DNA of 64,000 nt from a virus, in IMG/VR virus record IMGVR_UViG_3300033145_002224, positions 37,438 to 101,437 of that record. One strand, 5' to 3'. The notes below the pieces were generated by a model. It saw nothing but the letters and a program-made list of their open reading frames with translations. It was not told where the DNA came from and searched no databases. Both the position numbers and the translations under genes were made by a program. Shown here in pieces: positions 2,877 through 53,535 of the stretch (its first letter is position 1; every line of letters begins with the position of its first letter).

Positions 2877-3462
2877 ATTGTTGTTTTAGATACTTAAATG
2901 GATTAATATACTTACCGTATAAATCACGAATTCTATAATCTAGATGGCTTCCAGTTCCTCCGTGCATGCTATATGTTTGGCCGGTATTACCCATGAGTCC
3001 TCCAATTTGACCAGCTTGAACCTGTTGGCCTGGTTTTACAAATGATTGATGTAGGTGGCTATAACGATGCTTTGCACCCTGTGGATCTGTGACAACAACA
3101 TAGTTGCCGAAACCAGAATCTCCCTGTTTTTTACCAGATACAACCTCACTAACTGTCCCGGCTGTTTTAAATGGGATTTGTGTTCCAATTTTATTAGCAA
3201 CATCTATCCCTGGATGAAATTGTTCGTATTTAGTCGAACCTCCATATGGTACTGTAGTTGTACCAAGGTTTGAAAAATAATCAGCACCAGTTGCTTGTGA
3301 TACATTTGGAAATTGTTGACCTACGTTTATAGATTTTTGAGGCTTTGCCTGTTGAGCTGGTTGCGGTTGCATTTTTGGTAATGATTTACCAAGATCATAA
3401 GCCGCTCCTACACCAGCTTTAAGAAGTTTATTAGCCTGATATGTTTGGTTTTCTTTAAGCAT
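2866..3462 (-). CDS. M23-family peptidase (virion-associated peptidoglycan hydrolase)
   Basis: HPGID (HxxxD), YSHL, GNTG and HLD motifs of M23/LytM. Confidence 0.9.
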   Translation of the reverse strand: MLKENQTYQANKLLKAGVGAAYDLGKSLPKMQPQPAQQAKPQKSINVGQQFPNVSQATGADYFSNLGTTTVPYGGSTKYEQFHPGIDVANKIGTQIPFKTAGTVSEVVSGKKQGDSGFGNYVVVTDPQGAKHRYSHLHQSFVKPGQQVQAGQIGGLMGNTGQTYSMHGGTGSHLDYRIRDLYGKYINPFKYLKQQYVK

Positions 3463-3466
3463 ATTT

Positions 3467-5902
3467 TTATGATTTAGTAAATCCTTGAGCTGTTAAATCT
3501 TCTGGTGTAAAGTATCCATAGGGTGTTTGATAATTATCATTTATATCAATTGTTAAGCCTCCCTTTTTCCATATACCACCACCCGATATTTGCGTTGATG
3601 GTGTTGGTGTACTACTTTGTTGATTCATTGCACTACTTGTAGCAGCAGCAGCTTCCGCTGCTTGACCAAGTCCTGTATCAGCGACACCACTAGATTGTTG
3701 ATTAGCTGGATTAATCGACCAGGCGCTAGAATCAGATGGGTCAGTTCCTGTTTGTTGATTAGCCTGAGCCGTAGCGGCTGCGGCTTGTCCCAATGCTGTA
3801 TTTTCTGGATTAATTGACCAAGCGCTAGAATCAGATGGGTCAGTGCCTGTTTGTTGCTGTGTTGTTGGTGCTGAGTCAAATGCGCCAGCCTGTGTATATT
3901 CAGCATATCGTTTTTCTTCTTCATTCTTTTTTTGTTCTAAAAGCTGATCGAGTTGATATGTTTTCTTAGATTCACTTATACCATATTTATTAGCATATAA
4001 ATTCTGATAAAGTGTACTCCTATAATTACCATTTTCATCAATCATTAAATCTCTATATGCTATAGCCTCTTGTTCACTTAAACCATATTTACTTACTAAA
4101 TTTTGTACATCAAAGAAACTAAGCACATCTTGGCTTGGCGTTAATCCCCAAGCAACCCTCTCCTCTGCTGTTAGTGCTGCTATTTCTTCTGGGGTAGCAT
4201 TAGCTAATAAGTGTTTTCGTCTAGCTTCTGTTTCTTGGCTGGCTTTACTCTCTCTAACGGTTTCGTCGCCTCTCCTTACGTCTTGTAAATATCTATCCTT
4301 AGCTTCTTGTAATAAACCACTATCACCAAGATTAGCCTGACCATAACCACTTGTTATTGAATTAATTTGATCCCACGCACTATATGCATTATCACTAAGC
4401 TGTATACCATATAATCGATTCATTTCTTGTCTAAATGTTTCCCACTCATGGTCTGCGATAGCTTTTTGTTGATCAGTTTGTGCTTCTAATTGTTTGGTAA
4501 GTACATCATGATAGGCTGATTTAATTTTTTCAGCCTCTTCTTGTGCCTCTGGAGATGTCCAATCAAATGGTTGTACAAGTGTTTGGAATACTTCACTTGG
4601 AAGTTGAAATATAGATAAGTCGAGTAATGATGTGTCTATATCACCAAGTTGTGGAGGTGGGGCTAGTTCCATATTACTACGTATTGCTTGTCCTTCTGCG
4701 GTAGCATGATACTCATTAGCTGTTTGAGTACTATGTATAACCTGCATATTGGCATATTCTGAATCGCCTCCCTTAACTAATTGTTTACGTTTTAAGTCTC
4801 TATAAATATCATTTGGACCATATCCACCATAAGCCAATGCATTAACATATAAACCTATTGTATTTGGATCATTAAGGGCTTCTTGTACTACATCTGGATC
4901 AATACCACTATCTGTCATCTCCTTGATTAAGCCTAGCCAGTGATCTACAACCTTAAATGAGGCTTGTTGCGCTTGAGCGTTATATTCTTGACCATATAGT
5001 CTACCAATATCTTCCTCAGAGACGTTATCTGGAGTATATGTACCGGCTTCATTTATGCCCTGTTCATTGCCAAGTAACTGAAAGTTGAATAAAGTAGAAT
5101 CTTGATTTGTTAAAGCTGTTGTTGGTAGTGTCGTAATTAACCCACTATCCATTGCTTCTTGAGGTGACATACCATATTTAGCTATAAAACCAGTCTCGTC
5201 TAAAAATGGTCTCATTGATTGGCTGTTTTTGTCTACTAACCAAATCGTTGAGGCATCCCCCGGAGCAGCTCCATTAGGATCATCATTAAATTTAACAAGA
5301 GCCTCATTCCCTTGAAAGAAAAAATCATTAGTTTTACCTGAAATATCAGTCTGTGCTTTCGCATCTTCTTGTGCTTTTTTTCTTGACATCTCCAAATCTT
5401 TTCTCAACACAGAGTCATCAAGATGACTCATATACATATCTATTTCTTGTTGATTTGCATCCCGGCCAAGGTAAAGTTGATAAAGATGATTTACTGCATT
5501 TTTGCCTATAGTTTCACTTTCCGTTGGTTGTTGCATTGGTGTTTTTGGGGTTGGAGCCGGAACTGGAGTAGGGGCAGGGGTTGGAGTCGGAACTGGAGTA
5601 GGGGCAGGGGTTGGAGTCGGTTGTTTTGGGGCATATCCTCTCGGCTTTTGCCAATTAACACCTGTAGAAGTTAATAATTTATTTATTTCTGCTTGTGATT
5701 TCCAATTAAAACTAGGTTTAGTACTAATTGGTTTACCGTCTGGTATGTCAGTTAAATGACTAGAATCAATATCGACAAAAGCACCACCGCCTAAAACCTC
5801 CATACTTGTTATATGCCTTTTAGTCCCATTATCAATAAAATAGATTACATTATTAGAGTTATCTCTTACTAATATTCCATTTGGTAATTTGGTTGTTGCC
5901 AT
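3467..5902 (-). CDS. Putative internal virion/ejection protein with Pro-Thr linker
   Basis: 811 aa; (PTPA/PTPV)n linker; LYQLYLGRDA motif (DUF4214-like); duplicated QQTGTDPSDSSAWSINP near C-terminus. Confidence 0.55.
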   Translation of the reverse strand: MATTKLPNGILVRDNSNNVIYFIDNGTKRHITSMEVLGGGAFVDIDSSHLTDIPDGKPISTKPSFNWKSQAEINKLLTSTGVNWQKPRGYAPKQPTPTPAPTPVPTPTPAPTPVPAPTPKTPMQQPTESETIGKNAVNHLYQLYLGRDANQQEIDMYMSHLDDSVLRKDLEMSRKKAQEDAKAQTDISGKTNDFFFQGNEALVKFNDDPNGAAPGDASTIWLVDKNSQSMRPFLDETGFIAKYGMSPQEAMDSGLITTLPTTALTNQDSTLFNFQLLGNEQGINEAGTYTPDNVSEEDIGRLYGQEYNAQAQQASFKVVDHWLGLIKEMTDSGIDPDVVQEALNDPNTIGLYVNALAYGGYGPNDIYRDLKRKQLVKGGDSEYANMQVIHSTQTANEYHATAEGQAIRSNMELAPPPQLGDIDTSLLDLSIFQLPSEVFQTLVQPFDWTSPEAQEEAEKIKSAYHDVLTKQLEAQTDQQKAIADHEWETFRQEMNRLYGIQLSDNAYSAWDQINSITSGYGQANLGDSGLLQEAKDRYLQDVRRGDETVRESKASQETEARRKHLLANATPEEIAALTAEERVAWGLTPSQDVLSFFDVQNLVSKYGLSEQEAIAYRDLMIDENGNYRSTLYQNLYANKYGISESKKTYQLDQLLEQKKNEEEKRYAEYTQAGAFDSAPTTQQQTGTDPSDSSAWSINPENTALGQAAAATAQANQQTGTDPSDSSAWSINPANQQSSGVADTGLGQAAEAAAATSSAMNQQSSTPTPSTQISGGGIWKKGGLTIDINDNYQTPYGYFTPEDLTAQGFTKS

Positions 5903-34668: not shown

Positions 34669-37600
34669 TTAGGCAGTTACACCTTTGATCAAAGCACATT
34701 TAGGAGCCTGGATTCTTTGCAGACCACACTCTGTAATATACTCATCAACTTGACCATCTACGTCAGGAGCCTGGATGTTGGTCCGAAGCTTGGTGTCCCG
34801 ATTAGTTATGTACCGATATTTAAAGCAGTCCATGTCTAATAGGAAACCATATCCTGAGTAGTCTTCTACGAATAGCGGGTTGTGAATAAGGTTAATTTTC
34901 CCAAATGGGGTAACATATTCACCAATCTGCATGCCATAACTTCTTGCTAAAGGTTTCATTTGAATTTGACCTCTAGCGAATTCGTTAATAGCCTGCAAAA
35001 CCACACCACCACAGAATAATGTTTTTGTAGTGTCACCGTAAGTGAAACCTTCTCTAAGGAATGTGTTGAAGTCAGGAGCTGTTAACACACCACCTTGACT
35101 TTGAACATAAGAACCACCAGCATCGATGAATTCAAGTACGCCACCAGTAGCACGCCGAGGATGACCTTGGGTACCATTAGTGTCTGACTTTTTTTCACCC
35201 CACCAGAAAGCACGTTCAATCAAATTTGTTACTACTCACTATACTGTGAGCGGACCGATCATTTCTGCCGATCTCTGTATGTCGCCATACAGTTCAGACT
35301 ATATCACTTTCCATTAACGAATCTTCCATTACTATCTCTTTTTCGCTTCTTGGCGAAAACCGATACCTTTTCTTTATTCTCCTTCGTTCTTGGAATACCT
35401 CGTATAGTCGTTGAACCTGGAAATAAACTTTTATATTTTTCTATTCTATCCTGTTTTCTTTTTATATTAAAATACAGGCCATTAGCAATAAACGATTTCT
35501 TATTTATCCCAAATCTAGCAAATATCTTACCACTTTTCAGTTTTTCTTTCGTTATTTTACCAACCTGAATCCCTTTCTCTAACATGATTTTATGCAACTC
35601 ATATAACCATGTATCAGCAGCGCCTATACCTATCCTCATATCAAATACTTCATGCGAATTAACCATATGCCATCTACACATAGCAACCCAACCCTCACTA
35701 TCTAATAATCCAGAGAAAAATTCTAATTTATGAGAACGTTCCCATTCATTAAAATCAATTGGAATATTTTTTCTTCCTATCGTTTCTTCTAATAACCACT
35801 TATTCATTTTAACATCTGATAAAGTAACAAAATATACCTTTCTTTTTGCGCTAGTTAATCTTTTGGCAATTCCAATTGTTACTTTATTATCAGACAATTT
35901 TCTTAATGAGTTTGCGGTTTTAATTACAAAATCCTCATCTATTGCTTGTAATATAAAAGTTCTTTTATTTTTTGAGATGTGACCATCTCCTAAATAAACG
36001 CCTAAAATATAAGACGTAGCTTTAGTTTTATTGTACATATTTCCTTGGAAGCGGATTGTCTCCACTGACAACTTGTTGCTCTTGGGCATTGTCAGATACT
36101 GAGAGTTTCCCGCAATTTAGAGATATTTACCTATATCATTACTGATATAGGGGACATTGATCTATCCAGAGCGTGCTCGGTTCCTTTTTTGGCACGGAGA
36201 TAAGGAAGTTCCTTACCACCATAGAGTTTAAGTTCTCTTTCAGTGCCAGATACTGCGATTGAAGTCCGGAAAATTTGAGTATAATTACTTTCTTTCGAAC
36301 TCCGGGTTGTGTTCACGTTGCGTGCACCAGCATTTTCCTCATTTACATTACCAACGATGTAAAGACCATCGCCATCAGCCATAGCGGCCTCAGCTGTGGT
36401 ACCAAAACCACGATCATTTGCACCAATAGTAAGTGAACTAACACCTGCGATAGCATTTACTCTAAAGTTTTCACCAGTTCTTGCGTTCTTTACAACATCA
36501 CCAGGGGTGAAGATGTAACCTGAACTAGAACCAGCTCCAGATACTGTTAGAGTAATTGCACCAGTCGCGTGAGCGCCAGTTACTTTTGCATAACGTCCGC
36601 CATAAAAATCTTCGAACCAAGAAAATTCGGGATTATTAGCAGAATTTTTCATCATGCTTGAACCTTTCCAAACTCCATCAGCATATGTTTTACCTACATT
36701 TGTAAGTAAAGATACTAATGGATGCTTGTTAGCAAATTTTGTTACTACTCAAATCGAGCGGTTGAATCATTTCTGTTCAACTCTATATGTCTCCATATAG
36801 ATCGGACTATATCATCATCCCGTAGGATGCATAACCTTTAGTCTCTGAACGTTTCCTAATAATTTCTTTTTTGTACATCTTTTAATATTTCAATTGCTTT
36901 TTTTAGTTTTTTCTGCTTTCTTTCTATCGTAAAGAATAATCCATTGTTAATAAAATCACGAGCATTTATCTTAAATCTAACCATCGTGACAGAACCATTT
37001 TTAGTATAGTCTGGTGGCATTATTTCTGGTTTATTAATTCTAATTTTCAGCTTCTCTAAAAATTTTTTGAATTCCCAGATCCAACCATCAGTTCCCTTAC
37101 CGATACCAATGGTTACCCTAGGATTTATTCTATTCTTATAAACCAATGAAATATAACCATCTCCATCCATTATACCGGCTATAAACCATTTTTTTATAGA
37201 TAAATCTGCATCCCATATAAAATATGGTATATGATGTTTTTTACTAGTTTGAGATTCGAAATAATCTTTATATTTAGTAAAACCAACACCAACACAATAT
37301 TTTGTTATTTGGTTTCCAGAATTAAATCCACTTCCTTCTTGATCGTATTTATTAACATTACCATTACAATTTGGTAATATTTTTTTTAAACACTGCAATG
37401 TAAAAGAAGCAAAATCTTTATCTATAACTTGCAATTGAAATGTACAATTTTTTGTAGGCTTTATTCTACTTGTTATTGATGCATCAGTAAGATACACCCC
37501 AAAAAGATAAGCCAGTTCCTTACTAGGATTCTCGATGCTGATTGACTCTAAACTCATATTTTTACACTTAGGTAATGAATTAATTAAAAAGTTGTTCCAG

Positions 37601-37807
37601 CAATTTGTTATGTTTTATATCCCCACATTACTGTGAGGTAGAGCCTAACGCGAGGGTTCGCTCTAAGAGAAAAATCTTGTCAACAACGTCCACAATCAGT
37701 CTACCCTCGGCAAGGGATACGGCTGTACTACGAGCTCCATTGCTGGAGTCATCGGCAATCGTACCTCTGTCGTGGGTAGGCTCAGTATAATATGGAAATT
37801 GAGCCAT
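34669..37807 (-). CDS. Major capsid protein (SU10/DUF5309-like), 422 aa from 3 exons: 37807-37660, 36732-36164, 35220-34669
   Basis: Exons join in frame (148+569+552=1269 nt): ...KIFLLE-P-NKHPL... and ...EHALD-IERAFWWG...; NYTQIF and YVTPFG motifs; follows scaffold gene. Confidence 0.9.
35221..36163 (-). mobile_element. Group I intron 2 in capsid gene (943 nt)
   Basis: Exon ends GGAU; IGS UCAAU-GUCC gives P10/P1 with U.G; P AAUUGCGGGAA, Q AAUCCGC, R UCAACGACUA, S GAUAUAGUC; terminal G. Confidence 0.92.
35304..36089 (-). CDS. LAGLIDADG homing endonuclease (intron 2)
   Basis: YILGVYLGDG and FFSGLLDSEG motifs. Confidence 0.92.
   Translation of the reverse strand: MPKSNKLSVETIRFQGNMYNKTKATSYILGVYLGDGHISKNKRTFILQAIDEDFVIKTANSLRKLSDNKVTIGIAKRLTSAKRKVYFVTLSDVKMNKWLLEETIGRKNIPIDFNEWERSHKLEFFSGLLDSEGWVAMCRWHMVNSHEVFDMRIGIGAADTWLYELHKIMLEKGIQVGKITKEKLKSGKIFARFGINKKSFIANGLYFNIKRKQDRIEKYKSLFPGSTTIRGIPRTKENKEKVSVFAKKRKRDSNGRFVNGK
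36733..37659 (-). mobile_element. Group I intron 1 in capsid gene (927 nt)
   Basis: IGS GUUAGGCUCUA complementary to the ligated exons; P AAUUGCUGGAA, Q AAUCAGCA, R UCAGAGACUA, S GAUAUAGUCC; terminal G. Confidence 0.92.
36856..37557 (-). CDS. LAGLIDADG homing endonuclease (intron 1)
   Basis: YLFGVYLTDA and FIAGIMDGDG motifs. Confidence 0.92.
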   Translation of the reverse strand: MSLESISIENPSKELAYLFGVYLTDASITSRIKPTKNCTFQLQVIDKDFASFTLQCLKKILPNCNGNVNKYDQEGSGFNSGNQITKYCVGVGFTKYKDYFESQTSKKHHIPYFIWDADLSIKKWFIAGIMDGDGYISLVYKNRINPRVTIGIGKGTDGWIWEFKKFLEKLKIRINKPEIMPPDYTKNGSVTMVRFKINARDFINNGLFFTIERKQKKLKKAIEILKDVQKRNY

Positions 37808-45742: not shown

Positions 45743-48700
45743 TTATTTTTTTAGTTTTTTCTTAAGTTCTTTAGACGTATATTCTATATTTAAAGGATAC
45801 ATTGGCACACCCATCATTGACATTAGGGTACGCATAGTTCTCTGTGTCGCTGGCTCATAACCGGTCGCGCCTATAGGTGTCTTCCCCTCTTTAGCCATAC
45901 CAACTTGACGCCAACGGAAACTTGGAACATATTTAAGTGCTGCTTCTGGTGTCGCCAATCCAGCCACACCAGCGCTTGGCGGTATAACAGCCTCGGCCAT
46001 AGTCCGTCCAGCATATCCCATTTTTTCTAAACCGCTTGCATCATTCGGCCAAAGTTGCTGATCAAACATTCCACGAGGGTTTGATTCACGCAATATAGCT
46101 GGTTGGATAAAATAATCAAACATTACCTGTCCTTCTGGAGTTTTAAAAAATGGTAGTTTATCCATAGCAGCGGCTACACCACTAGACAATGTATTCTCAT
46201 ATCTCCGTTCACTTGGTTGGAACATATTCATTGTATAATATGGAACCATATTAGCCACATTGGCGTAAACTGGATGATCCTCAAAAAATGGCAACTTAAT
46301 CATTCCGTTACGGTTATACCACTCATGATATGGTGATTCTAAGGCATACTTCTCTAGGGGTGATTTTCGACCAGAAAATTCACTCATTAAAAACGTCATC
46401 TTATTAAACGCTGCTGGATTATTTATGACAGTCTTGCCAGTTTTAACTGCCATACCATACATAAAACTATTACCAGTTAAATCTATATATTTTTTGTCAA
46501 CCCTCGCTACCCACGTAGAGTTATCAGATACCTGTGGGCACCAAACCTTATTTTTATATTTTATTTTTGTAATTTTACTCCTTTTAATTTGTCTATAACA
46601 CCTTATATTAACATTAACCGTACAACATTTATTATCTCTTTTTAAAATTGTTACAGAATATCCAAGCATCAAACAAAGAACTTGAAACGTATCTAATGTT
46701 TCATTATAATTTTGTATAAACACTATGCGACCATCTTTATTTATACTACCATCAGCTAGAATTAATATATCAAACAACAACCTTAGTTGTTCTCTTGTAA
46801 GTTTATTCAAAAAATCTATTGTTAATTTTTTATCAGGTGCAAATTTCCTCATTATTTCACGATACTTTGTACCAAAATAGAATTGATAACAATCATAATT
46901 AGCCATCTTAACATTTTCCTTTTTTTGAATTTGTACACTGTTTGTTACACATAATCTTTTACGTAATTTTTTTATTCTATCAACACCGCCTGGCCTAGCT
47001 TGAGTTAAAACAAAAGAAGAAAAATCGCCATCTTTTCTTTTACTAACATAACTACCCTCTGTCACAAACCATCCTACTAACTCTACAATATCATCAGAAA
47101 TTATTTTTTTATTAATACCATCATAACCATGTTCAGCCCCAGTCACAATAGACCACCTCTCTCCAAGTCTTTCAATTCCATCCGTCTTTATTTTTTTGAC
47201 TATCCACTTACCATATCCACGTTTCCTTTTCCCATTTTTAATCCCCAATTCTATATTTTCTTTTTTGGCAACAATGCAATCATGATTTGGTGTAGCTGAA
47301 ATATTTATAGAACGACCATTAATATTATATAATTCACCATCATAATCATACTCAAAAACATTTTCAAGTATTTTCCACTCCATAGTTTTCTTTTCCATAT
47401 TATAACTCGCCACGTCCTCACCAATATTTAATTCTGTATAATGTTTCCATCCACGTTTAGTTAATATTTCCGTATCTACAGTACGACAAGCAAATGGAGC
47501 ACCAAACACTGGCATTGAACGTAATACTTTTACAGCAGCTGGCATTGCTCCATAATTCATGTAAATTTCATTAACAACTTCAGTAGCTTTATCTGGTGAT
47601 AATTTCCAAAGATGTTCTTTCGGTACATATGTTATTTCATCTGGAGCAATCCTTATTGCACGACTTAGTGTCAAAAGTTCTCTTTCTGTCATCCCAACAT
47701 TTGTAAGTTGGACAGCTGTACCGAGTTTATAAGCAGCATCAATCCTCTGGTATTTATTCATTGGTTGTGTTAAGTACCAATGTAAAAATCTAGCACCAGT
47801 ACTTTTATCACCAGCCTTTTCTATTTTTCTAAGCCACTCTGGAAAATAACCACCAAAAGATGATTGTTCATAAATTTCATCACCAATAAACGTACTGGGT
47901 AATTTATTAACATCATTAGATAAATTTAAACTAACTATATCTGATTTCACATCGGTCTTTTTTCCTATATCTTCAACTGTCTCACCAACAACCTTAGCGT
48001 CTGCACCCTCACCAGCCTTATGTATTGTTTTTTTCTTTGGTCTACCAAATAATTCAATACTTCTAAGTTCACCCCTAGTTGTACCATAGGTTTTTGGAAA
48101 CGTAGATGGAGCACTATCAATATAGTGGACCCACTCATCATTCTTTAAAATCTTTTCTAAAAACTTCTCATCAACTTTTCCATTTAAAATATTCCAAGCA
48201 CCTTTAACATTTCCAAAATAACCAGGTCTAGTTATATTAAGACCAGCCATTAATCCCATTGTAAGGTTACCAACCGTAGCATTTGTATAGGCAGAAATAT
48301 TACCACCAATTTTTGCTATTTTAAATAACTTAATAAAACGATCATATTCTTTAAGTGTATTATAACCAACCTTTTTATCACCAACTTTTATATTTTTAAA
48401 TGATTCGACTACTTTATCATACCAATCTGTACCAGTCTTTCCAATCATTTTATCCATTTCTTCACGAAGTACTACCATAACATCCTTCACTAATTTATCG
48501 GTGGTAGCCTCACCAGCCATCGCACCAGTTACATCACTGGCTGTAAATTTATCAGCAATTTTAGAATTACGTGTTGCTATATCAGCACCCTCATCTATAG
48601 ATGATAATAATGTATTTCTAACTCGTGTAGCAACATCATCAACCTTCCCGGTCGTCGCACCAATCATTCTAATAGCTCCTTTTATTTTTTCAATGTCAAC

Positions 48701-49561
48701 TGGATCAGTCCCCTTTAATACCTCAAAGGCATCATCTAGTCTAGCGGCCTGCATCCAATCTTGATTACTATATTTAAAACCAGTAATTAAAGCATTACCC
48801 CACTCACTCTTTTTTAAAAATTCCTCTGTCTGTTCTCCCCATTTTATTTTTTCAGCTCTTTTACCAAGAATATTATCCACACTCCTACCAACTAATGTGT
48901 CATATTGTCTAGCTGCCACAGCTGCTTTTTCTGTTAATTTAGCTGTATCTACGCCCGGTATAACTCTTCCAACACTAGCAGCTTTTTTAAGAGCACTAGA
49001 GCTAACCCCCTTAGCAGCACCTGTTAATCCCTTTTGAGATAAACCATACGCTACCCTAGGAATAGTAGCACTAGCGCCAAGTGTAGCCCAGGCAATTGGA
49101 TCAAATGCAATATCTAAAGCAAGTCCAAGTGGCATTGAAGCCACTGTGGGCATATTATAACTACGTAAGATATCTCCGAAGACACCCCTTTCTTTAATGT
49201 TTGCCCAAATATTAGACAAACCACTTTCAGTACCTTTACCAAGCATAGCCTCAACACCACCAACGATACCATAAAGCGGCGCAGATAAACCATGTATACC
49301 TCGCATTAACACATTTTCTTTATTTTCACCAACACCAGGCTCCTTTGGATCACGCTCGGGATACCACCTTGCCTTCTGATAGTCACTAGAGGCCTTATCA
49401 CGTTGTAATTTTATCTCCTTTAAATCTAATTGAGTTTGAAGATCACTCATTGACGGCTTAACGTTCGGTGTGTAGGCTGTTTTTGAAGTTTTTAGTTGAC
49501 TTTCAAGCGTTTTTTGTATTTCTGAGTACTTATCGAGTTCAATTTTGTTGTTTCTTGCCAT
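45743..49561 (-). CDS. Large virion/ejection-type protein containing an intein
   Basis: 1272 aa; GLALDIAFDPIAW and NYG...PF..F motifs typical of phage internal/polyvalent proteins. Confidence 0.65.
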   Translation of the reverse strand: MARNNKIELDKYSEIQKTLESQLKTSKTAYTPNVKPSMSDLQTQLDLKEIKLQRDKASSDYQKARWYPERDPKEPGVGENKENVLMRGIHGLSAPLYGIVGGVEAMLGKGTESGLSNIWANIKERGVFGDILRSYNMPTVASMPLGLALDIAFDPIAWATLGASATIPRVAYGLSQKGLTGAAKGVSSSALKKAASVGRVIPGVDTAKLTEKAAVAARQYDTLVGRSVDNILGKRAEKIKWGEQTEEFLKKSEWGNALITGFKYSNQDWMQAARLDDAFEVLKGTDPVDIEKIKGAIRMIGATTGKVDDVATRVRNTLLSSIDEGADIATRNSKIADKFTASDVTGAMAGEATTDKLVKDVMVVLREEMDKMIGKTGTDWYDKVVESFKNIKVGDKKVGYNTLKEYDRFIKLFKIAKIGGNISAYTNATVGNLTMGLMAGLNITRPGYFGNVKGAWNILNGKVDEKFLEKILKNDEWVHYIDSAPSTFPKTYGTTRGELRSIELFGRPKKKTIHKAGEGADAKVVGETVEDIGKKTDVKSDIVSLNLSNDVNKLPSTFIGDEIYEQSSFGGYFPEWLRKIEKAGDKSTGARFLHWYLTQPMNKYQRIDAAYKLGTAVQLTNVGMTERELLTLSRAIRIAPDEITYVPKEHLWKLSPDKATEVVNEIYMNYGAMPAAVKVLRSMPVFGAPFACRTVDTEILTKRGWKHYTELNIGEDVASYNMEKKTMEWKILENVFEYDYDGELYNINGRSINISATPNHDCIVAKKENIELGIKNGKRKRGYGKWIVKKIKTDGIERLGERWSIVTGAEHGYDGINKKIISDDIVELVGWFVTEGSYVSKRKDGDFSSFVLTQARPGGVDRIKKLRKRLCVTNSVQIQKKENVKMANYDCYQFYFGTKYREIMRKFAPDKKLTIDFLNKLTREQLRLLFDILILADGSINKDGRIVFIQNYNETLDTFQVLCLMLGYSVTILKRDNKCCTVNVNIRCYRQIKRSKITKIKYKNKVWCPQVSDNSTWVARVDKKYIDLTGNSFMYGMAVKTGKTVINNPAAFNKMTFLMSEFSGRKSPLEKYALESPYHEWYNRNGMIKLPFFEDHPVYANVANMVPYYTMNMFQPSERRYENTLSSGVAAAMDKLPFFKTPEGQVMFDYFIQPAILRESNPRGMFDQQLWPNDASGLEKMGYAGRTMAEAVIPPSAGVAGLATPEAALKYVPSFRWRQVGMAKEGKTPIGATGYEPATQRTMRTLMSMMGVPMYPLNIEYTSKELKKKLKK
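46469..47488 (-). mobile_element. Intein with LAGLIDADG endonuclease (340 aa)
   Basis: N-junction PFA|CRTVDTEILTKRGWK, block B ATPNH, LVGWFVTEG and LILADG, C-junction VWCPQV...TGN|S. Confidence 0.93.
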
Positions 49562-49622
49562 ATTTTGTGAAAAAAATGCAAAAATATAACAATTTCTGCA
49601 TGAAACATTAATTTATATCTAT

Positions 49623-49640
49623 ATTTTAGCAAAAGTACCC
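49623..49640 (-). promoter_or_regulatory. Promoter motif variant GGGTACTTTTGCTAAAAT
   Basis: Upstream of the 49561 gene and terminase operon. Confidence 0.7.
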
Positions 49641-49651
49641 CACGTTTTAAT

Positions 49652-49736
49652 AAAAAAAAGCAAACCCCAATTTCTGGAATCCGCTTTTTAGGTCAGGCGA
49701 AATCAGAACCATAGCCAATGACGACTATAAGCTCTA
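49652..49736 (-). ncRNA. Candidate ~85-nt small RNA (hairpin + intrinsic terminator)
   Basis: Starts just after promoter motif 49742-49759; hairpin AGAGCUUAUAGUCG/UGGCUAUGGUUCU; terminator GCGGAUUCCA...UGGGGUUUGC followed by U8. Confidence 0.55.
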
Positions 49737-49741
49737 TTAAT

Positions 49742-49759
49742 ATTATATCAAAAGTACCC
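49742..49759 (-). promoter_or_regulatory. Conserved phage promoter motif GGGTACTTTTGATATAAT
   Basis: Identical to 40078-40095. Confidence 0.75.
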
Positions 49760-49769
49760 GTATAAAGCA

Positions 49770-50335
49770 AAGAGCCCCATCCAGTACTAAGACGTGAATG
49801 GGGCCCCTGTTGTTGATCCCTCATGCTTATCGGGGGTCTAACATATATGCAATGCTGACTCCCGCCCCTCAACAAGTATTAATTGGATTTCACCGAATTA
49901 AATCCCGACTTGCAAAATTAACTATAACATAATTAGACATGTTGAGGGGTACGTTCCACCTATTGGTTGTGAACGCTGTATGAGCCCAATATGTTATAAT
50001 CTACAATCTCTCGCCGAGGGGCGGGAGCACTATTATAATAATATAAACATGATTCACACTATGGAAAGAGACTATCACATGCCGCCTTTCAAGTTCCACT
50101 ACCCGACACTTCTGTCGAAATAGCTTTAACAAGTCCAGCAAGCACCCAATATCAACTTTCAACATACATCCCACCGCACTAGTCCCCATTCAAGGGTTCA
50201 TTAAGTTACGTTTGGAGATTTAACGGGATGCGAACCTCACCGACTGCCTCACAGAATTAGCCTGGCCTTACCCTTACCGGGTTCGAGGTGAGTACCTTAT
50301 CCGTGCGTTGCGAATTGTTCAGCCACATAATGCAA
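49770..50335 (-). ncRNA. Candidate large structured non-coding RNA(s)
   Basis: GC-enriched, no credible ORF; 19-bp helix 50010-50028/49858-49876 with G.U pairs on the minus strand, plus nested helices. Confidence 0.6.
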
Positions 50336-50365
50336 ATCAGGTTTATATTATTATTTTATAATGTA

Positions 50366-50599
50366 CTATACTATTTTAGGCCAACTCCATGTGCCTGGCG
50401 CATTATCCCCTTCTAAAACATTTTTAGCGAAGAATATACCACCTGTATTACTCATTACGAATAAATCACACTTAATTGGATCATCTCCATTATCATATAC
50501 TTCTTGCACTATTGCTGGTGATTCAATTGGATCGTATTCTCCATCCGCACTACCGCGGTGCTTATAGATTACAACCCTACCCATTGATGGTTTTTTCAT
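50366..50599 (-). CDS. Conserved small phage hypothetical protein
   Basis: PSMGRVVIY...PAIV...GTWSWP pattern. Confidence 0.75.
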   Translation of the reverse strand: MKKPSMGRVVIYKHRGSADGEYDPIESPAIVQEVYDNGDDPIKCDLFVMSNTGGIFFAKNVLEGDNAPGTWSWPKIV

Positions 50600-50641
50600 T
50601 TCTTTTTAATTATTTTTTTAATTTTAATATCGAAATAGACA

Positions 50642-51214
50642 TTAGCGTATATAGGCAAATTCCTTAAAGTATTTTTTTTCTCCCTCACATCTTGCTTTTA
50701 TCGCCCCCTTCCTTGTTTTATGGGTACCTAAACTTATTTGTTTAGAATTAACCATTATATAAGCCCTCCAATTATTATTTATTTTATTAAAACAATATCC
50801 GTCGCTCGGTTTATTCATTATATTTTGTTGGTGTGTACAATACCTTAAATTCTGTTTACGGTTATCAAGCGGGTTATAGTTTTTATGGTCTATAATAAAA
50901 TTTTCTTTTTTGCCCAAAATGAATATATGTAAATAAATTTTATTTGAGGCTACATGACCAGTATTTTTAATCGTCCATTTATGTTTTTTAACTTTTTCTA
51001 CATTGTCTAAATCAATCTTGGCCCTAGCAACTTCTTCACATTTTCTATTATATAGAATAATCTCAGCATAATCACTATATTTTATTATTTCATTTTTATC
51101 ATATATGGTTCTTTTTAGTAGTTTTCCATGTCTTTGTATTTGGTGTCCATGTTTACTACAGTAACCATGTGAATTATGTTTTCTCTTACAATTTTTTACT
51201 TTACAAATTTTCAT
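50642..51214 (-). CDS. HNH endonuclease with AP2-like C-terminus
   Basis: IDHKNYNPLDNRKQNLR; WRAYI...ISLG. Confidence 0.9.
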   Translation of the reverse strand: MKICKVKNCKRKHNSHGYCSKHGHQIQRHGKLLKRTIYDKNEIIKYSDYAEIILYNRKCEEVARAKIDLDNVEKVKKHKWTIKNTGHVASNKIYLHIFILGKKENFIIDHKNYNPLDNRKQNLRYCTHQQNIMNKPSDGYCFNKINNNWRAYIMVNSKQISLGTHKTRKGAIKARCEGEKKYFKEFAYIR

Positions 51215-51447
51215 AAATCTTTATCACGACAAATACTAAAATAGGCTTCTGCAAAAGGGCAACTATCACCACAATATGAATGCTTACGAATTATCTTAAC
51301 TACTAATTGTCTAAAGTCTACAATATCGTTTTTATTCCCGTGCGTACACCGAAACGCCATAACTTCTTTCATTAATTCTTGACAAAGATTTTTATGCTTA
51401 CTTTTTTTATAGGGCCAAATATCAGCCGCATACTTCTTTTTTCTCAT
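51211..51447 (-). CDS. Hypothetical protein
   Basis: Short ORF in tandem array; start uncertain. Confidence 0.45.
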   Translation of the reverse strand: MRKKKYAADIWPYKKSKHKNLCQELMKEVMAFRCTHGNKNDIVDFRQLVVKIIRKHSYCGDSCPFAEAYFSICRDKDL

Positions 51448-51613
51448 TATATTGTTTAACAAATTGTTCTATCTCTAGTTTACCGCCACAACGAAAACAT
51501 TTAATTTCAGAATCAGGATACTCAGACCAGTTCTCACTACTTTTACCTTTGTCATGTTTAACATTCTTACTACACTTAGGACAAATCAATTTTAATTTAA
51601 AATCTTTACCCAT
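51422..51613 (-). CDS. Zn-ribbon protein
   Basis: CPKC...CFRC. Confidence 0.6.
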   Translation of the reverse strand: MGKDFKLKLICPKCSKNVKHDKGKSSENWSEYPDSEIKCFRCGGKLEIEQFVKQYNEKKEVCG

Positions 51614-51618
51614 ATAAT

Positions 51619-51885
51619 TTAATTAACAATTTTTAAAGCATCACCTAATTCATCCTCAAACCCATTACTACTAGATAATCTAAGCCAAACATTAATAGCA
51701 AACCTTATTGTATCTTTTATTTCCCTAGACATTTTATACTCTGGGTCACCCCCAACAGGATATGTTTCAAGTTCGGTCATTGCTCGCTCAATAAGCTTAA
51801 TTTTAAACGGAGCTTTTATAATTTTTATATACTCATCTAATGCATATAACATGCATATTTGAGTGGAGAATTTAATAATTTTCAT
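51619..51885 (-). CDS. Hypothetical protein
   Basis: 88-aa ORF. Confidence 0.5.
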   Translation of the reverse strand: MKIIKFSTQICMLYALDEYIKIIKAPFKIKLIERAMTELETYPVGGDPEYKMSREIKDTIRFAINVWLRLSSSNGFEDELGDALKIVN

Positions 51886-51902
51886 TTAATTTAATTTATT
51901 CG

Positions 51903-51973
51903 CACCGGGCAGAGGTATCGCACCCCTGACTTAAGGTTTGGAATCTTATATGATACTATTTCACCAGCCCGGT
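51903..51973 (-). tRNA. trnW: tRNA-Trp (CCA), atypical T-loop
   Basis: Acceptor ACCGGGC/GCCCGGT, anticodon loop TTCCAAA, T-arm AGGGG-TGCGATA-CCTCT; no encoded CCA tail. Confidence 0.75.
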
Positions 51974-52003
51974 TTAACTTAAAAACTGAGCTGATGTACT
52001 TGT

Positions 52004-52165
52004 TTAATCTGTTTCATTGAGCTTAATATCCGAACGTCTAAATAACCTTCGCATACGACCAAATCCTTGATTAACACGACGTGTTTTGTCCCCTTCGCAT
52101 GTTCCAAGACCTCTACCGGTCTTTGGTCCAGCACCCTGGGGTCCCGTTTTGTCATATCCTGGCAT
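52004..52165 (-). CDS. DUF5320-like small Gly/Arg-rich protein (53 aa)
   Basis: Manual translation MPGYDKTGPQGAGPKTGRGLGTC... matches the MP.GD.TGP.G.GP.TGRG.G.C family pattern; GGTGGTG SD-like site. Confidence 0.8.
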   Translation of the reverse strand: MPGYDKTGPQGAGPKTGRGLGTCEGDKTRRVNQGFGRMRRLFRRSDIKLNETD

Positions 52166-52192
52166 ATTCTCACCACCTTTCTAGTTTTAAGT

Positions 52193-52546
52193 TTATTTTT
52201 CTCTTAATATTATATTATTTTTATGTGTTAACAACTCATCATCCTTCCACCTTGTTGGCTTTTTTATTTCAATACCATCACCTAATAAAATATGTATGAT
52301 AACATCCCTTTTAATTCCCTTTGCTATGTCTAATAATGATTTTAAAAATGTACACCCCTGTGAAATATATTTATCATCTTTTGTTTTTTTAACAAAACTA
52401 CCAATACAGTTATATTTACTAGTTGAATCTCCGTTTTTACATTTATATCCAAAAAATTTATAACCCCCATCTTCCCACAAAAACCCAGGTGCAGGTATTT
52501 TATCAATAAATTTTTCAACAATTATATTTACTTCTTCTTTTTCCAC
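52193..52546 (-). CDS. Hypothetical protein
   Basis: 117-aa ORF. Confidence 0.5.
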   Translation of the reverse strand: MEKEEVNIIVEKFIDKIPAPGFLWEDGGYKFFGYKCKNGDSTSKYNCIGSFVKKTKDDKYISQGCTFLKSLLDIAKGIKRDVIIHILLGDGIEIKKPTRWKDDELLTHKNNIILREK

Positions 52547-52734
52547 TTTACTTTAATTTAATGGGGATGCGCGGTTTTTACATCCCCTATTTTTTTACAT
52601 TATTTTTATTACCTTCCTTAAACACCCATCTCTCAAACCAAACCTCATTAATGGATTTGATTTTCAATAATTTTTTAATTAGTTTTTTTTCGTCTTTATC
52701 CGTTGTGTGTATTATGAATTGTATTTGATTCACT

Positions 52735-52941
52735 TTAAGCCTCCTCTACTATTCTTACCGGAAAACCGCCATTTATATTAATATTCATAAATGCACTTAT
52801 ATTAAAATACAAAAATGAACAACAATGAAATAACCACCCAAAATAATCCCATCTCCAACTCTTTACCGCTACACAACTATCATTATCATCATCGTCTACT
52901 TTAACGGGCCAAAAATCGAATATTATACCTTTTTTAATCAT
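52735..52941 (-). CDS. Hypothetical protein
   Basis: 68 aa; overlaps HU stop. Confidence 0.5.
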   Translation of the reverse strand: MIKKGIIFDFWPVKVDDDDNDSCVAVKSWRWDYFGWLFHCCSFLYFNISAFMNININGGFPVRIVEEA

Positions 52942-53242
52942 TTGTTTTTATTCCCATCATATAAGTCCTGAGCTTATAACCTGGTTTAAATTTAATTTGA
53001 TTCCTGCCAGGAATAATAATTCGCTGGCCAGGATTTTTAGCATCGTTTGCAAACCTGTCTTTGCCATCATGTAATTTAAAAATACCCCAATCTGGCACCT
53101 CACAAACACCTTTTTTTCTAATATTAGCTATTATAACCTTTAAAAACCCATAATATACGGTTTTAACCACCTCTGGCTCCATATAATTACTTTTTTCGCT
53201 AAGTTCACGCCAAAATTCAGTTTTTTGTCTATTTGACATCAT
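52934..53242 (-). CDS. HU/IHF-like DNA-binding protein
   Basis: VPDWGIF...NPGQRIIIPGR.QIKFKPG HU-arm pattern. Confidence 0.85.
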   Translation of the reverse strand: MMSNRQKTEFWRELSEKSNYMEPEVVKTVYYGFLKVIIANIRKKGVCEVPDWGIFKLHDGKDRFANDAKNPGQRIIIPGRNQIKFKPGYKLRTYMMGIKTND

Positions 53243-53462: not shown

Positions 53463-53535
53463 TTATCCACAATACTCAGCTATAATCAGTATAGCAAATC
53501 ATAGGACACTTGTCAAGTGGATAACTTATGGATAA
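53463..53535 (-). promoter_or_regulatory. Sigma70 promoter flanked by DnaA-box-like 9-mers
   Basis: -35 TTGACA (53511-16), 17-bp spacer, TGcTATACT (-10 at 53488-93); TTATCCACA at 53463-71; near-boxes at 53516-24 and 53527-35. Confidence 0.75.

Follow-up and report, generated by a model that had tools for sequence, protein, structure and literature searches.

The longest and most G+C-rich ORF-free stretch in the 101-kb phage genome considered here is an 804-nt gap (49562–50365), with a GC content of 0.40 (locally 0.42–0.475) compared with 0.34 for the genome, and it raises the question of whether an RNA is encoded in it and, if so, of what kind. The gap lies in the window, the whole stretch of 64,000 nt that was analysed, which corresponds to bases 37438–101437 of a 101,437-bp IMG/VR virus record rated 100% complete; from position 1 to ~58,000 of the window, the genes are on the minus strand. 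An earlier reading of the sequence (the original prediction) placed in this gap an unclassified structured RNA, or possibly two, on the minus strand. The answer developed here is that the most conspicuous non-coding stretch of the genome contains a real, strand-specific and well-defined fold, and that the element formed by it is larger and more modular than was first described, with a folding signal that is uneven across it.

Hidden ORFs in the gap were considered and rejected: all six frames are dense in stops, and neither Pfam nor PHROG gives a signal for the longest ORFs. The gene upstream of the element, a 77-aa gene (50366–50599, minus; phrog_2293), has stand-alone homologues of 71–105 aa that align through to its last residues. 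Because this gene is complete, the RNA is neither an intron within it nor its decayed tail, and a split gene was ruled out on the same ground. Downstream lies a 1272-aa virion-type gene (45743–49561, minus) that has its own promoter and whose product is complete at the N-terminus, since the proteins of relatives align from residue 1. Residues ~692–1031 of the 1272-aa protein are skipped by all relatives, and weak LAGLIDADG and intein-splicing matches fall in the same segment; the weak matches and the absence from relatives are consistent with an intein.

The element (50354–49766, minus) is ~590 nt long, begins 12 nt past the stop codon of the 77-aa gene, and is made up of three consecutive stem-closed modules (D1, D2, and D3), and this division into more than one unit is compatible with the early suggestion of one or two RNAs. 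D1 (50354–50035, 320 nt) consists of a closing stem followed by two arms. Its stem is formed by an inverted repeat, I1, that was missing from the original prediction and that closes the whole 5′ half of the element: the 5′ arm (AUAAUAAUAUAAACCUGAUUUGCAUUAUG, 50326–50354, minus) and the 3′ arm (CAUAGUGUGAAUCAUGUUUAUAUUAUUAU, 50035–50063, minus) are 29 nt long and 86% complementary as DNA, and in the minus-strand RNA 28 of the 29 positions pair (25 Watson-Crick and 3 G.U, with 1 C.U mismatch) at a pair probability of 0.99. Enclosed by this stem is a G-rich interior of 262 nt (50064–50325, minus; GC 0.43–0.475), which in MFE and ensemble folds forms arm A (50319–50161, minus), with predicted CGCAC/GUGCG, GGAU/AUCC, and CUCACC/GGUGAG helices and small hairpins, and arm B (50160–50064, minus), a predicted long irregular hairpin with the tip CGACA-GAAG-UGUCG. 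Taken by itself, the D1 interior folds no better than shuffled sequences (z +0.2 to −0.7), and the small helices inside D1 are therefore individually predictions only.

D2 (49858–50028, minus; 171 nt) is Y-shaped in MFE and ensemble folds. It is closed by a helix of 19 bp (50028–50010 with 49876–49858; 15 Watson-Crick and 4 G.U) that had been recognized at the outset, several G.U pairs included, together with the inner helix and hairpins within it. The closing helix opens onto a three-way junction, from which one branch extends as a long arm of 4+3+12+6 bp (the 12-bp helix being GAUUAUAACAUA/UAUGUUAUAGUU and the 6-bp helix UUGGGC/GUCUAA) plus an apical hairpin, GCGUUC/GAACGU; the other branch is a hairpin, GGAUUU/AAAUCC (49905–49885). 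Helix probabilities in D2 are 0.75–0.98, and the D2 helices hold 10 G.U and no A.C positions. D3 (49766–49856, minus) comprises a small hairpin and a 14-bp G+C-rich hairpin (GGGGCCCCAU.../...AUGGGGCUC; 49808–49795 with 49783–49770; probability 0.95), followed by CUCUUUGCUUUAUA, and it directly abuts a promoter copy at 49759. A terminator consensus scan does not call the D3 hairpin, which has a loop of more than 8 nt and a weak U tract. In relatives, a terminator-then-promoter layout is found in front of the homologue of the 1272-aa gene; here, the D3 hairpin occupies the terminator position, and D3 is likely the end of the upstream transcription unit.

All of the minus-strand helices named in the original prediction are present as complementary sequence. 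The CUCACC/GGUGAG, CGACA/UGUCG, and 14-bp hairpin helices all occur in the MFE fold, at pair probabilities of at least 0.95; the GCAUCCCG/UGGGAUGU helix is complementary as described, but its probability in the ensemble is ~0. The proposal of a switch, in which an internal ACCCCUCAACA would compete for the 3′ arm of the 19-bp helix, fared similarly: the complementarity is real, but at equilibrium the alternative pairing has a probability of ~0 versus the 19-bp helix, and on the folding model the switch is without thermodynamic support. The complementarity in question is inverted repeat I6, between the internal-loop segment CCCCUCAACAUGU (49937–49949, minus), which is unpaired in D2, and part of the D2 3′ arm (49877–49865), over 13 nt at 92%. 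A further complementarity, I15, links 50192–50184 with the 5′ arm of the terminator hairpin (49803–49795), and several loops of the element contain short palindromes.

Folding statistics distinguish the two strands. The minus strand of the 566-nt stretch originally singled out folds at −188.8 kcal/mol (z −3.9), compared with −141.1 kcal/mol (z −1.3) for the plus strand, and 50340–49765 has a minus-strand z of −4.6 and a plus-strand z of −1.6. The bulk of the thermodynamic signal comes from D2 (50030–49856; z −7.3 minus, −3.8 plus) and the D1 closing stem; D1 with both arms (50360–50030) folds at −105.1 kcal/mol (z −4.05) on the minus and −72.3 kcal/mol (z −2.86) on the plus strand. With pair probabilities of 0.9–0.99 for the main helices, the ensemble is well defined. 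Seven long helices contain 70 Watson-Crick, 16 G.U, and 0 A.C positions; given the base composition, 16 G.U out of 16 with no A.C would arise by chance with a probability of ~2e-4, a count that is biased in that the helices were delimited on the minus-strand fold, except for two pairs that came from the repeat search: I1, which forms the closing arms of D1, and I5, which forms the outer arms of D2. Because the 16 G.U pairs become mismatches on the other strand, they explain the strand difference of 48 kcal/mol. Together, the G.U pattern, the strand bias, the pair probabilities, and the stops favour a structure selected in a transcript over a DNA palindrome; the plus-strand z at D2 and the D1 stem is itself above chance, and a DNA-level origin of the repeats may still be considered. 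With strand-specific folding and no coding signal, the description of the region as non-coding and structured holds.

The original prediction had also been unable to assign a family, and a cmscan against all 4227 Rfam families agreed, finding nothing at gathering or at E ≤ 10 in the window, in a 1.3-kb region, or in two pieces of 276–321 nt. Neither tRNA nor tmRNA was found in the element by ARAGORN (default, relaxed, and with introns allowed); an intron-containing tRNA was rejected in particular, as the search that allowed introns did not turn up tRNA halves either. A resemblance to RNase P RNA was likewise rejected, as there was no Rfam match and the best local alignment of the element to E. 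coli rnpB scored 19, compared with 18.5 ± 2.0 for shuffles, which is the level of chance.

The element is predicted to be transcribed as the last part of a longer unit. The best promoter-like site in the scan (11/12) is a σ70 promoter, TTGACA-17-TATACT with TG, at 53488–53516 (minus), and no terminator-like site was found in the scan between it and position 50300; from the sequence, it is the probable start of a 3.7-kb unit that ends with D1-D2-D3. The predicted order of this unit is an HU-like gene (52934–53242, minus; Bac_DNA_binding), ORFans, a DUF5320 gene, tRNA-Trp, ORFans, an HNH endonuclease, the 77-aa gene, and D1-D2-D3. A hairpin and T run (53570–53533, minus) precede the promoter, and a leader of ~245 nt separates it from the HU-like gene. 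The tRNA-Trp (51902–51973; identified by ARAGORN, on the same strand as the element) sits 1.5 kb upstream of the element in the same predicted unit, in keeping with the setting of known large phage RNAs, often near tRNAs, that the original prediction had cited. Just upstream of the tRNA, a 53-aa ORF (52004–52165, minus) encodes a DUF5320 protein (PF17253, E 9e-12) and accounts for a G+C-rich patch at 51974–52192. As the σ70 promoter is near consensus, the host would be one that uses canonical σ70 promoters. The Bacteroidota-type motif TAnnTTTG shows no enrichment, with 92 occurrences in the window against 92 expected, and promoters of that type were rejected, the motif here being that of an extended −10 promoter.

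A second type of promoter marks the 3′ limit of the element. The window has five copies of GGGTACTTwTGnTATAAT (11757, 21410, 40085, 49630, and 49749; minus), each of which precedes a structural gene or a small RNA unit, and variants of it (TACTTATGATATAAT and TACTTGTGGTATATT) precede the homologous gene in relatives. The copy next to D3 (GGGTACTTTTGATATAAT, 49742–49759, minus) combines an upstream element with an extended −10. No copy precedes D1 or D2; a candidate in front of D2 was rejected as a poor match to the five true copies. Outside the element, the promoter at 49759 is followed by a promoter-to-terminator unit (49650–49741, minus) for a predicted small RNA of ~85 nt, which has a hairpin of at least 7 bp and a strong terminator (terminator-like site at 49689–49655) and a fold z of −3.3 for the minus strand, compared with −1.4 for the plus strand. 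After it comes a second promoter copy (49640–49623) that serves the 1272-aa gene; this promoter duplication, which drives the small RNA unit, was seen as a direct-repeat family in the repeat search. Relatives have a single promoter and no small RNA unit.

Comparison with relatives bears on the spread of the element. In a comparison set of 80 loci around terminase homologues (53–71% identity), synteny is conserved: the HU-like gene lies directly next to the 1272-aa gene homologue, and two small genes and the terminase follow. In the present genome, these two neighbours are separated by an insertion of 3.4 kb (49562–52933) that relatives lack and that holds ORFans, the tRNA-Trp, the HNH gene, the 77-aa gene, and the element, which is therefore part of a lineage-specific island. 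The equivalent gap in relatives is 100–150 nt with one small terminator, and analogous RNAs in such gaps were sought and rejected, as the gaps hold opposite-strand genes or plain terminator-promoter spacers.

Searches for homologues of the element gave none by blastn against GenBank phages and plasmids, none by blastn and nhmmer in 119 loci (80 terminase-linked, 8 HNH-linked, and 31 linked to the 77-aa gene), and none by BLAST and a D2 covariance model (R1, which scores 216 bits on its own genome) in 50 whole related records, nine of them at least 90% complete. Exact 16–20-mers yielded only chance matches in coding DNA in IMG/VR and JGI metagenomes, and the terminal-repeat pattern of D2 yielded 13 unrelated matches in GTDB genomes (an actinomycete repeat and a Ruminococcus palindrome). 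In the genome of the actinomycete Yinghuangia seranimata (L143–L155), there are at least 12 copies of a ~160-bp repeat that looks MITE-like, has CTCCCGCCCCTC / GAGGGGCGGGAG at its ends, and shares with D2 only the 12-mer. The second-closest viral homologue of the 77-aa gene, in L096, is followed by at least 350 nt (3217–3565) that are ORF-free to the contig end and have no sequence similarity to D1 or D2. No close relatives of the 1272-aa gene were found in IMG/VR and JGI, and the closest phages in the collections have ~70% terminase identity, apart from a 100%-identical fragment (L009); the phage lineage is under-sampled.

The explanation that best accommodates these results, and that is put forward tentatively, is that the element is the structured non-coding 3′ end of a tRNA-containing operon, from which D1 and D2 may be excised at their long stems. 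The operon would start at the σ70 promoter at 53516–53488, and its transcript would fold into D1, D2, and D3. RNase III would then cut the closing stems and free D1 and D2 from the polycistronic RNA, a release paralleling that of the tRNA from the same transcript by RNase P; one or two stable phage RNAs, separated from the upstream messages, would result, and D3 would end the operon as a terminator. In rRNA operons, as in the early transcripts of phages, comparable long helices are cut by RNase III. By sequence, both stems are of this type (~20 bp or more, flanking a domain, in a longer transcript): D1 has 28 paired positions and D2 19 bp, with no promoter in front of either and no terminator upstream. 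Since their size and form fit the substrates of the double-strand-specific RNase III, excision would be the most likely fate of the two domains. Here as elsewhere, the transcription, processing, stability, and any function of D1 and D2 are what we infer from the model.

What counts against excision from an operon is in large part what would be expected of selfish or relic DNA, a somewhat unlikely alternative in which D1 and D2 are two adjacent inverted-repeat-bounded insertions (MITE-like, or remnants of mobile cassettes that came in together with the HNH endonuclease) without RNA-level function, their hairpins being by-products of the inverted repeats at their ends. The collections searched yielded no homologue, hence neither covariation nor conservation lends support to an RNA; the stability of the D1 interior does not exceed the level of shuffled sequence; and D2 and the D1 stem score above chance on the plus strand too, as DNA palindromes would. 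Inverted repeats flank both D1 (29 nt) and D2 (19 nt); the two lie in a variable island that has a homing-type HNH gene next to them and that relatives lack, and the whole 3.4-kb island could be recent, neutral cargo. However, no second copy exists in the genome, in IMG/VR, or in GTDB genomes, and no target-site duplication flanking the element is evident in the sequence, both of which a MITE would be expected to have; the G+C content of the element is above that of the surrounding phage DNA. Further, the 16 transition-type non-Watson-Crick positions of the long helices are without exception G.U on the transcribed strand, with no A.C among them, a pattern that neutral decay of a palindrome would not give and that therefore counts against selfish DNA.

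Two further readings accept the fold and differ in what it would do; both are unlikely. One is that the element is a purely cis-acting 3′ UTR, whose long hairpins and terminator would keep the early/middle operon and the late promoter apart and would govern, through RNase III sites, how stable the upstream messages are, in the manner of retroregulation, any free-standing RNA product being irrelevant. Its position fits, directly after the last ORF and with a terminator-like hairpin abutting a conserved promoter; long perfect-to-wobble stems suit RNase III, and the complementarities I6 and I15 could give alternative folds. Those alternative pairings, however, have a probability of ~0 at equilibrium, and relatives insulate with one small terminator, which leaves ~500 extra structured nucleotides unexplained. 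The other, which is to be regarded as doubtful to a like extent, is that D1 and D2 are the founding members of an unseen class of stable phage RNAs, stem-closed modules set free from a tRNA-bearing operon and with an infection function of their own, orphans by virtue of sparse sampling. They might, for example, act as a sponge or decoy that occupies an RNA-binding factor of host defence or RNA processing, or build an RNA-only assembly.

The resemblance to GOLLD and ROOL suggested in the original prediction extends to setting and size, but not to the models of these families. That the element is a ROOL/GOLLD-type ornate RNA that has diverged very far, or an analogue of these RNAs, which self-assemble into RNA-only cages, is improbable. 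Its phage setting, with a tRNA-Trp 1.5 kb upstream in the same unit, its length of ~590 nt, close to the 574 positions of the ROOL model (RF03087), its end-to-end closing helix, and the short palindromes in several loops would suit such an RNA. Against this, cmscan with all 4227 families gave no match to GOLLD in the element at E ≤ 10; the ROOL model, whose gathering score is 99.1 bits, found nothing at E ≤ 10, whether in the region or genome-wide, a negative that rests mainly on the direct cmscan, as the control genomes also gave nothing in the whole-genome search; and the element has three tandem closed modules, not one multi-pseudoknotted domain. The accession RF01998 is that of group-II-D1D4-1 and not of GOLLD.

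Least probable is that D1 is a degenerate ORF-less group I intron: group I introns do occur in the capsid gene of this phage, and the terminase genes of relatives are interrupted, the 262 nt of the D1 interior are the size of a small group I intron, and GGGACUA (50187–50181) / UAGUCUC (50073–50067) and CGCAC/GUGCG could form P7-like and P3-like helices in the right order, but the group I model (RF00028) finds nothing in D1 at E ≤ 10, although in this genome it does detect the core of capsid intron 1 (36783–36943, minus; 29.2 bits, E 6e-7), D1 aligns with neither capsid intron, whereas the two introns align well with one another, no gene is interrupted, both flanking genes being complete, the P7-like helix has a probability of ~0 and a 7-bp complementarity is expected by chance in 276 nt, and the J3/4 and J6/7 junctions would be of atypical length. 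In the capsid gene itself (region 34669–37807), the coding sequence is broken up by two related group I introns that contain endonuclease ORFs and in which R elements (GUUCAGAGACUAAA / GUUCAACGACUAUA) and S elements (GAUAUAGUCC / GAUAUAGUCU) were identified by eye; both introns are missed at the Rfam gathering threshold, and RF00028 recovers, with a score below threshold, no more than the 3′ core of intron 1. In relatives, the gene for the terminase large subunit is in two to five pieces, 0.7–1.3 kb apart, in seven loci (L052, L054, L056, L067, L068, L070, and L072), the last of which also has intein-like matches; the phage group is unusually rich in introns and inteins.

With these alternatives weighed, the reading as the processed 3′ end of a tRNA-containing operon is retained, and the element is, on the model given above, a plausible new non-coding RNA. 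As a singleton in an uncultured phage, it is an orphan candidate and not yet evidence of a new RNA family. Large structured phage RNAs such as ROOL and GOLLD are abundant and elaborately folded, and each independent example from another genomic setting helps in narrowing down their role.

Several known systems share features with the element. Phages and prophages carry the genes for ROOL and GOLLD, in many cases close to tRNA islands, and the structures of these RNAs have been studied by cryo-EM (PMC12286853). The element is, like them, large (~600 nt), non-coding, heavily base-paired, phage-encoded, and near a tRNA gene; unlike them, it has tandem modules in place of a single multi-pseudoknotted fold, matches no Rfam family, and has no homologues among the sequences searched. 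Miniature inverted-repeat elements, such as Correia or ERIC-type repeats, are similar in being units of 170–320 bp with inverted repeats of 19–29 bp that give hairpins if transcribed, and differ from the present modules, which are single-copy in the collections searched, have no target-site duplication, and carry strand-specific imperfections that are exclusively G.U.

In phage T4, the tRNA cluster encodes two stable RNAs, species 1 and species 2 (rnaC and rnaD), of ~120–140 nt, that adjoin the tRNAs. The RNAs proposed here are also non-coding, belong to a tRNA-bearing transcription unit, and would presumably be released by processing. In contrast to the T4 RNAs, the modules are 171 and 320 nt long and lie 1.5 kb downstream of a single tRNA, and their long closing stems suggest processing by RNase III rather than RNase P. 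T7 RNase III sites are single short hairpins of ~50–60 nt, whereas the stems predicted here enclose 135–262 nt of structure. Two stem-closed domains and a tRNA in one unit make a concrete, testable prediction, that of excision by RNase III. The predicted stems share with the RNase III stems of rRNA operons and of T7 early and lambda transcripts the form of long-range helices of ~20–30 bp that flank a domain, with wobbles and one mismatch, and, like those stems, they would lie within a polycistronic transcript, between coding units.
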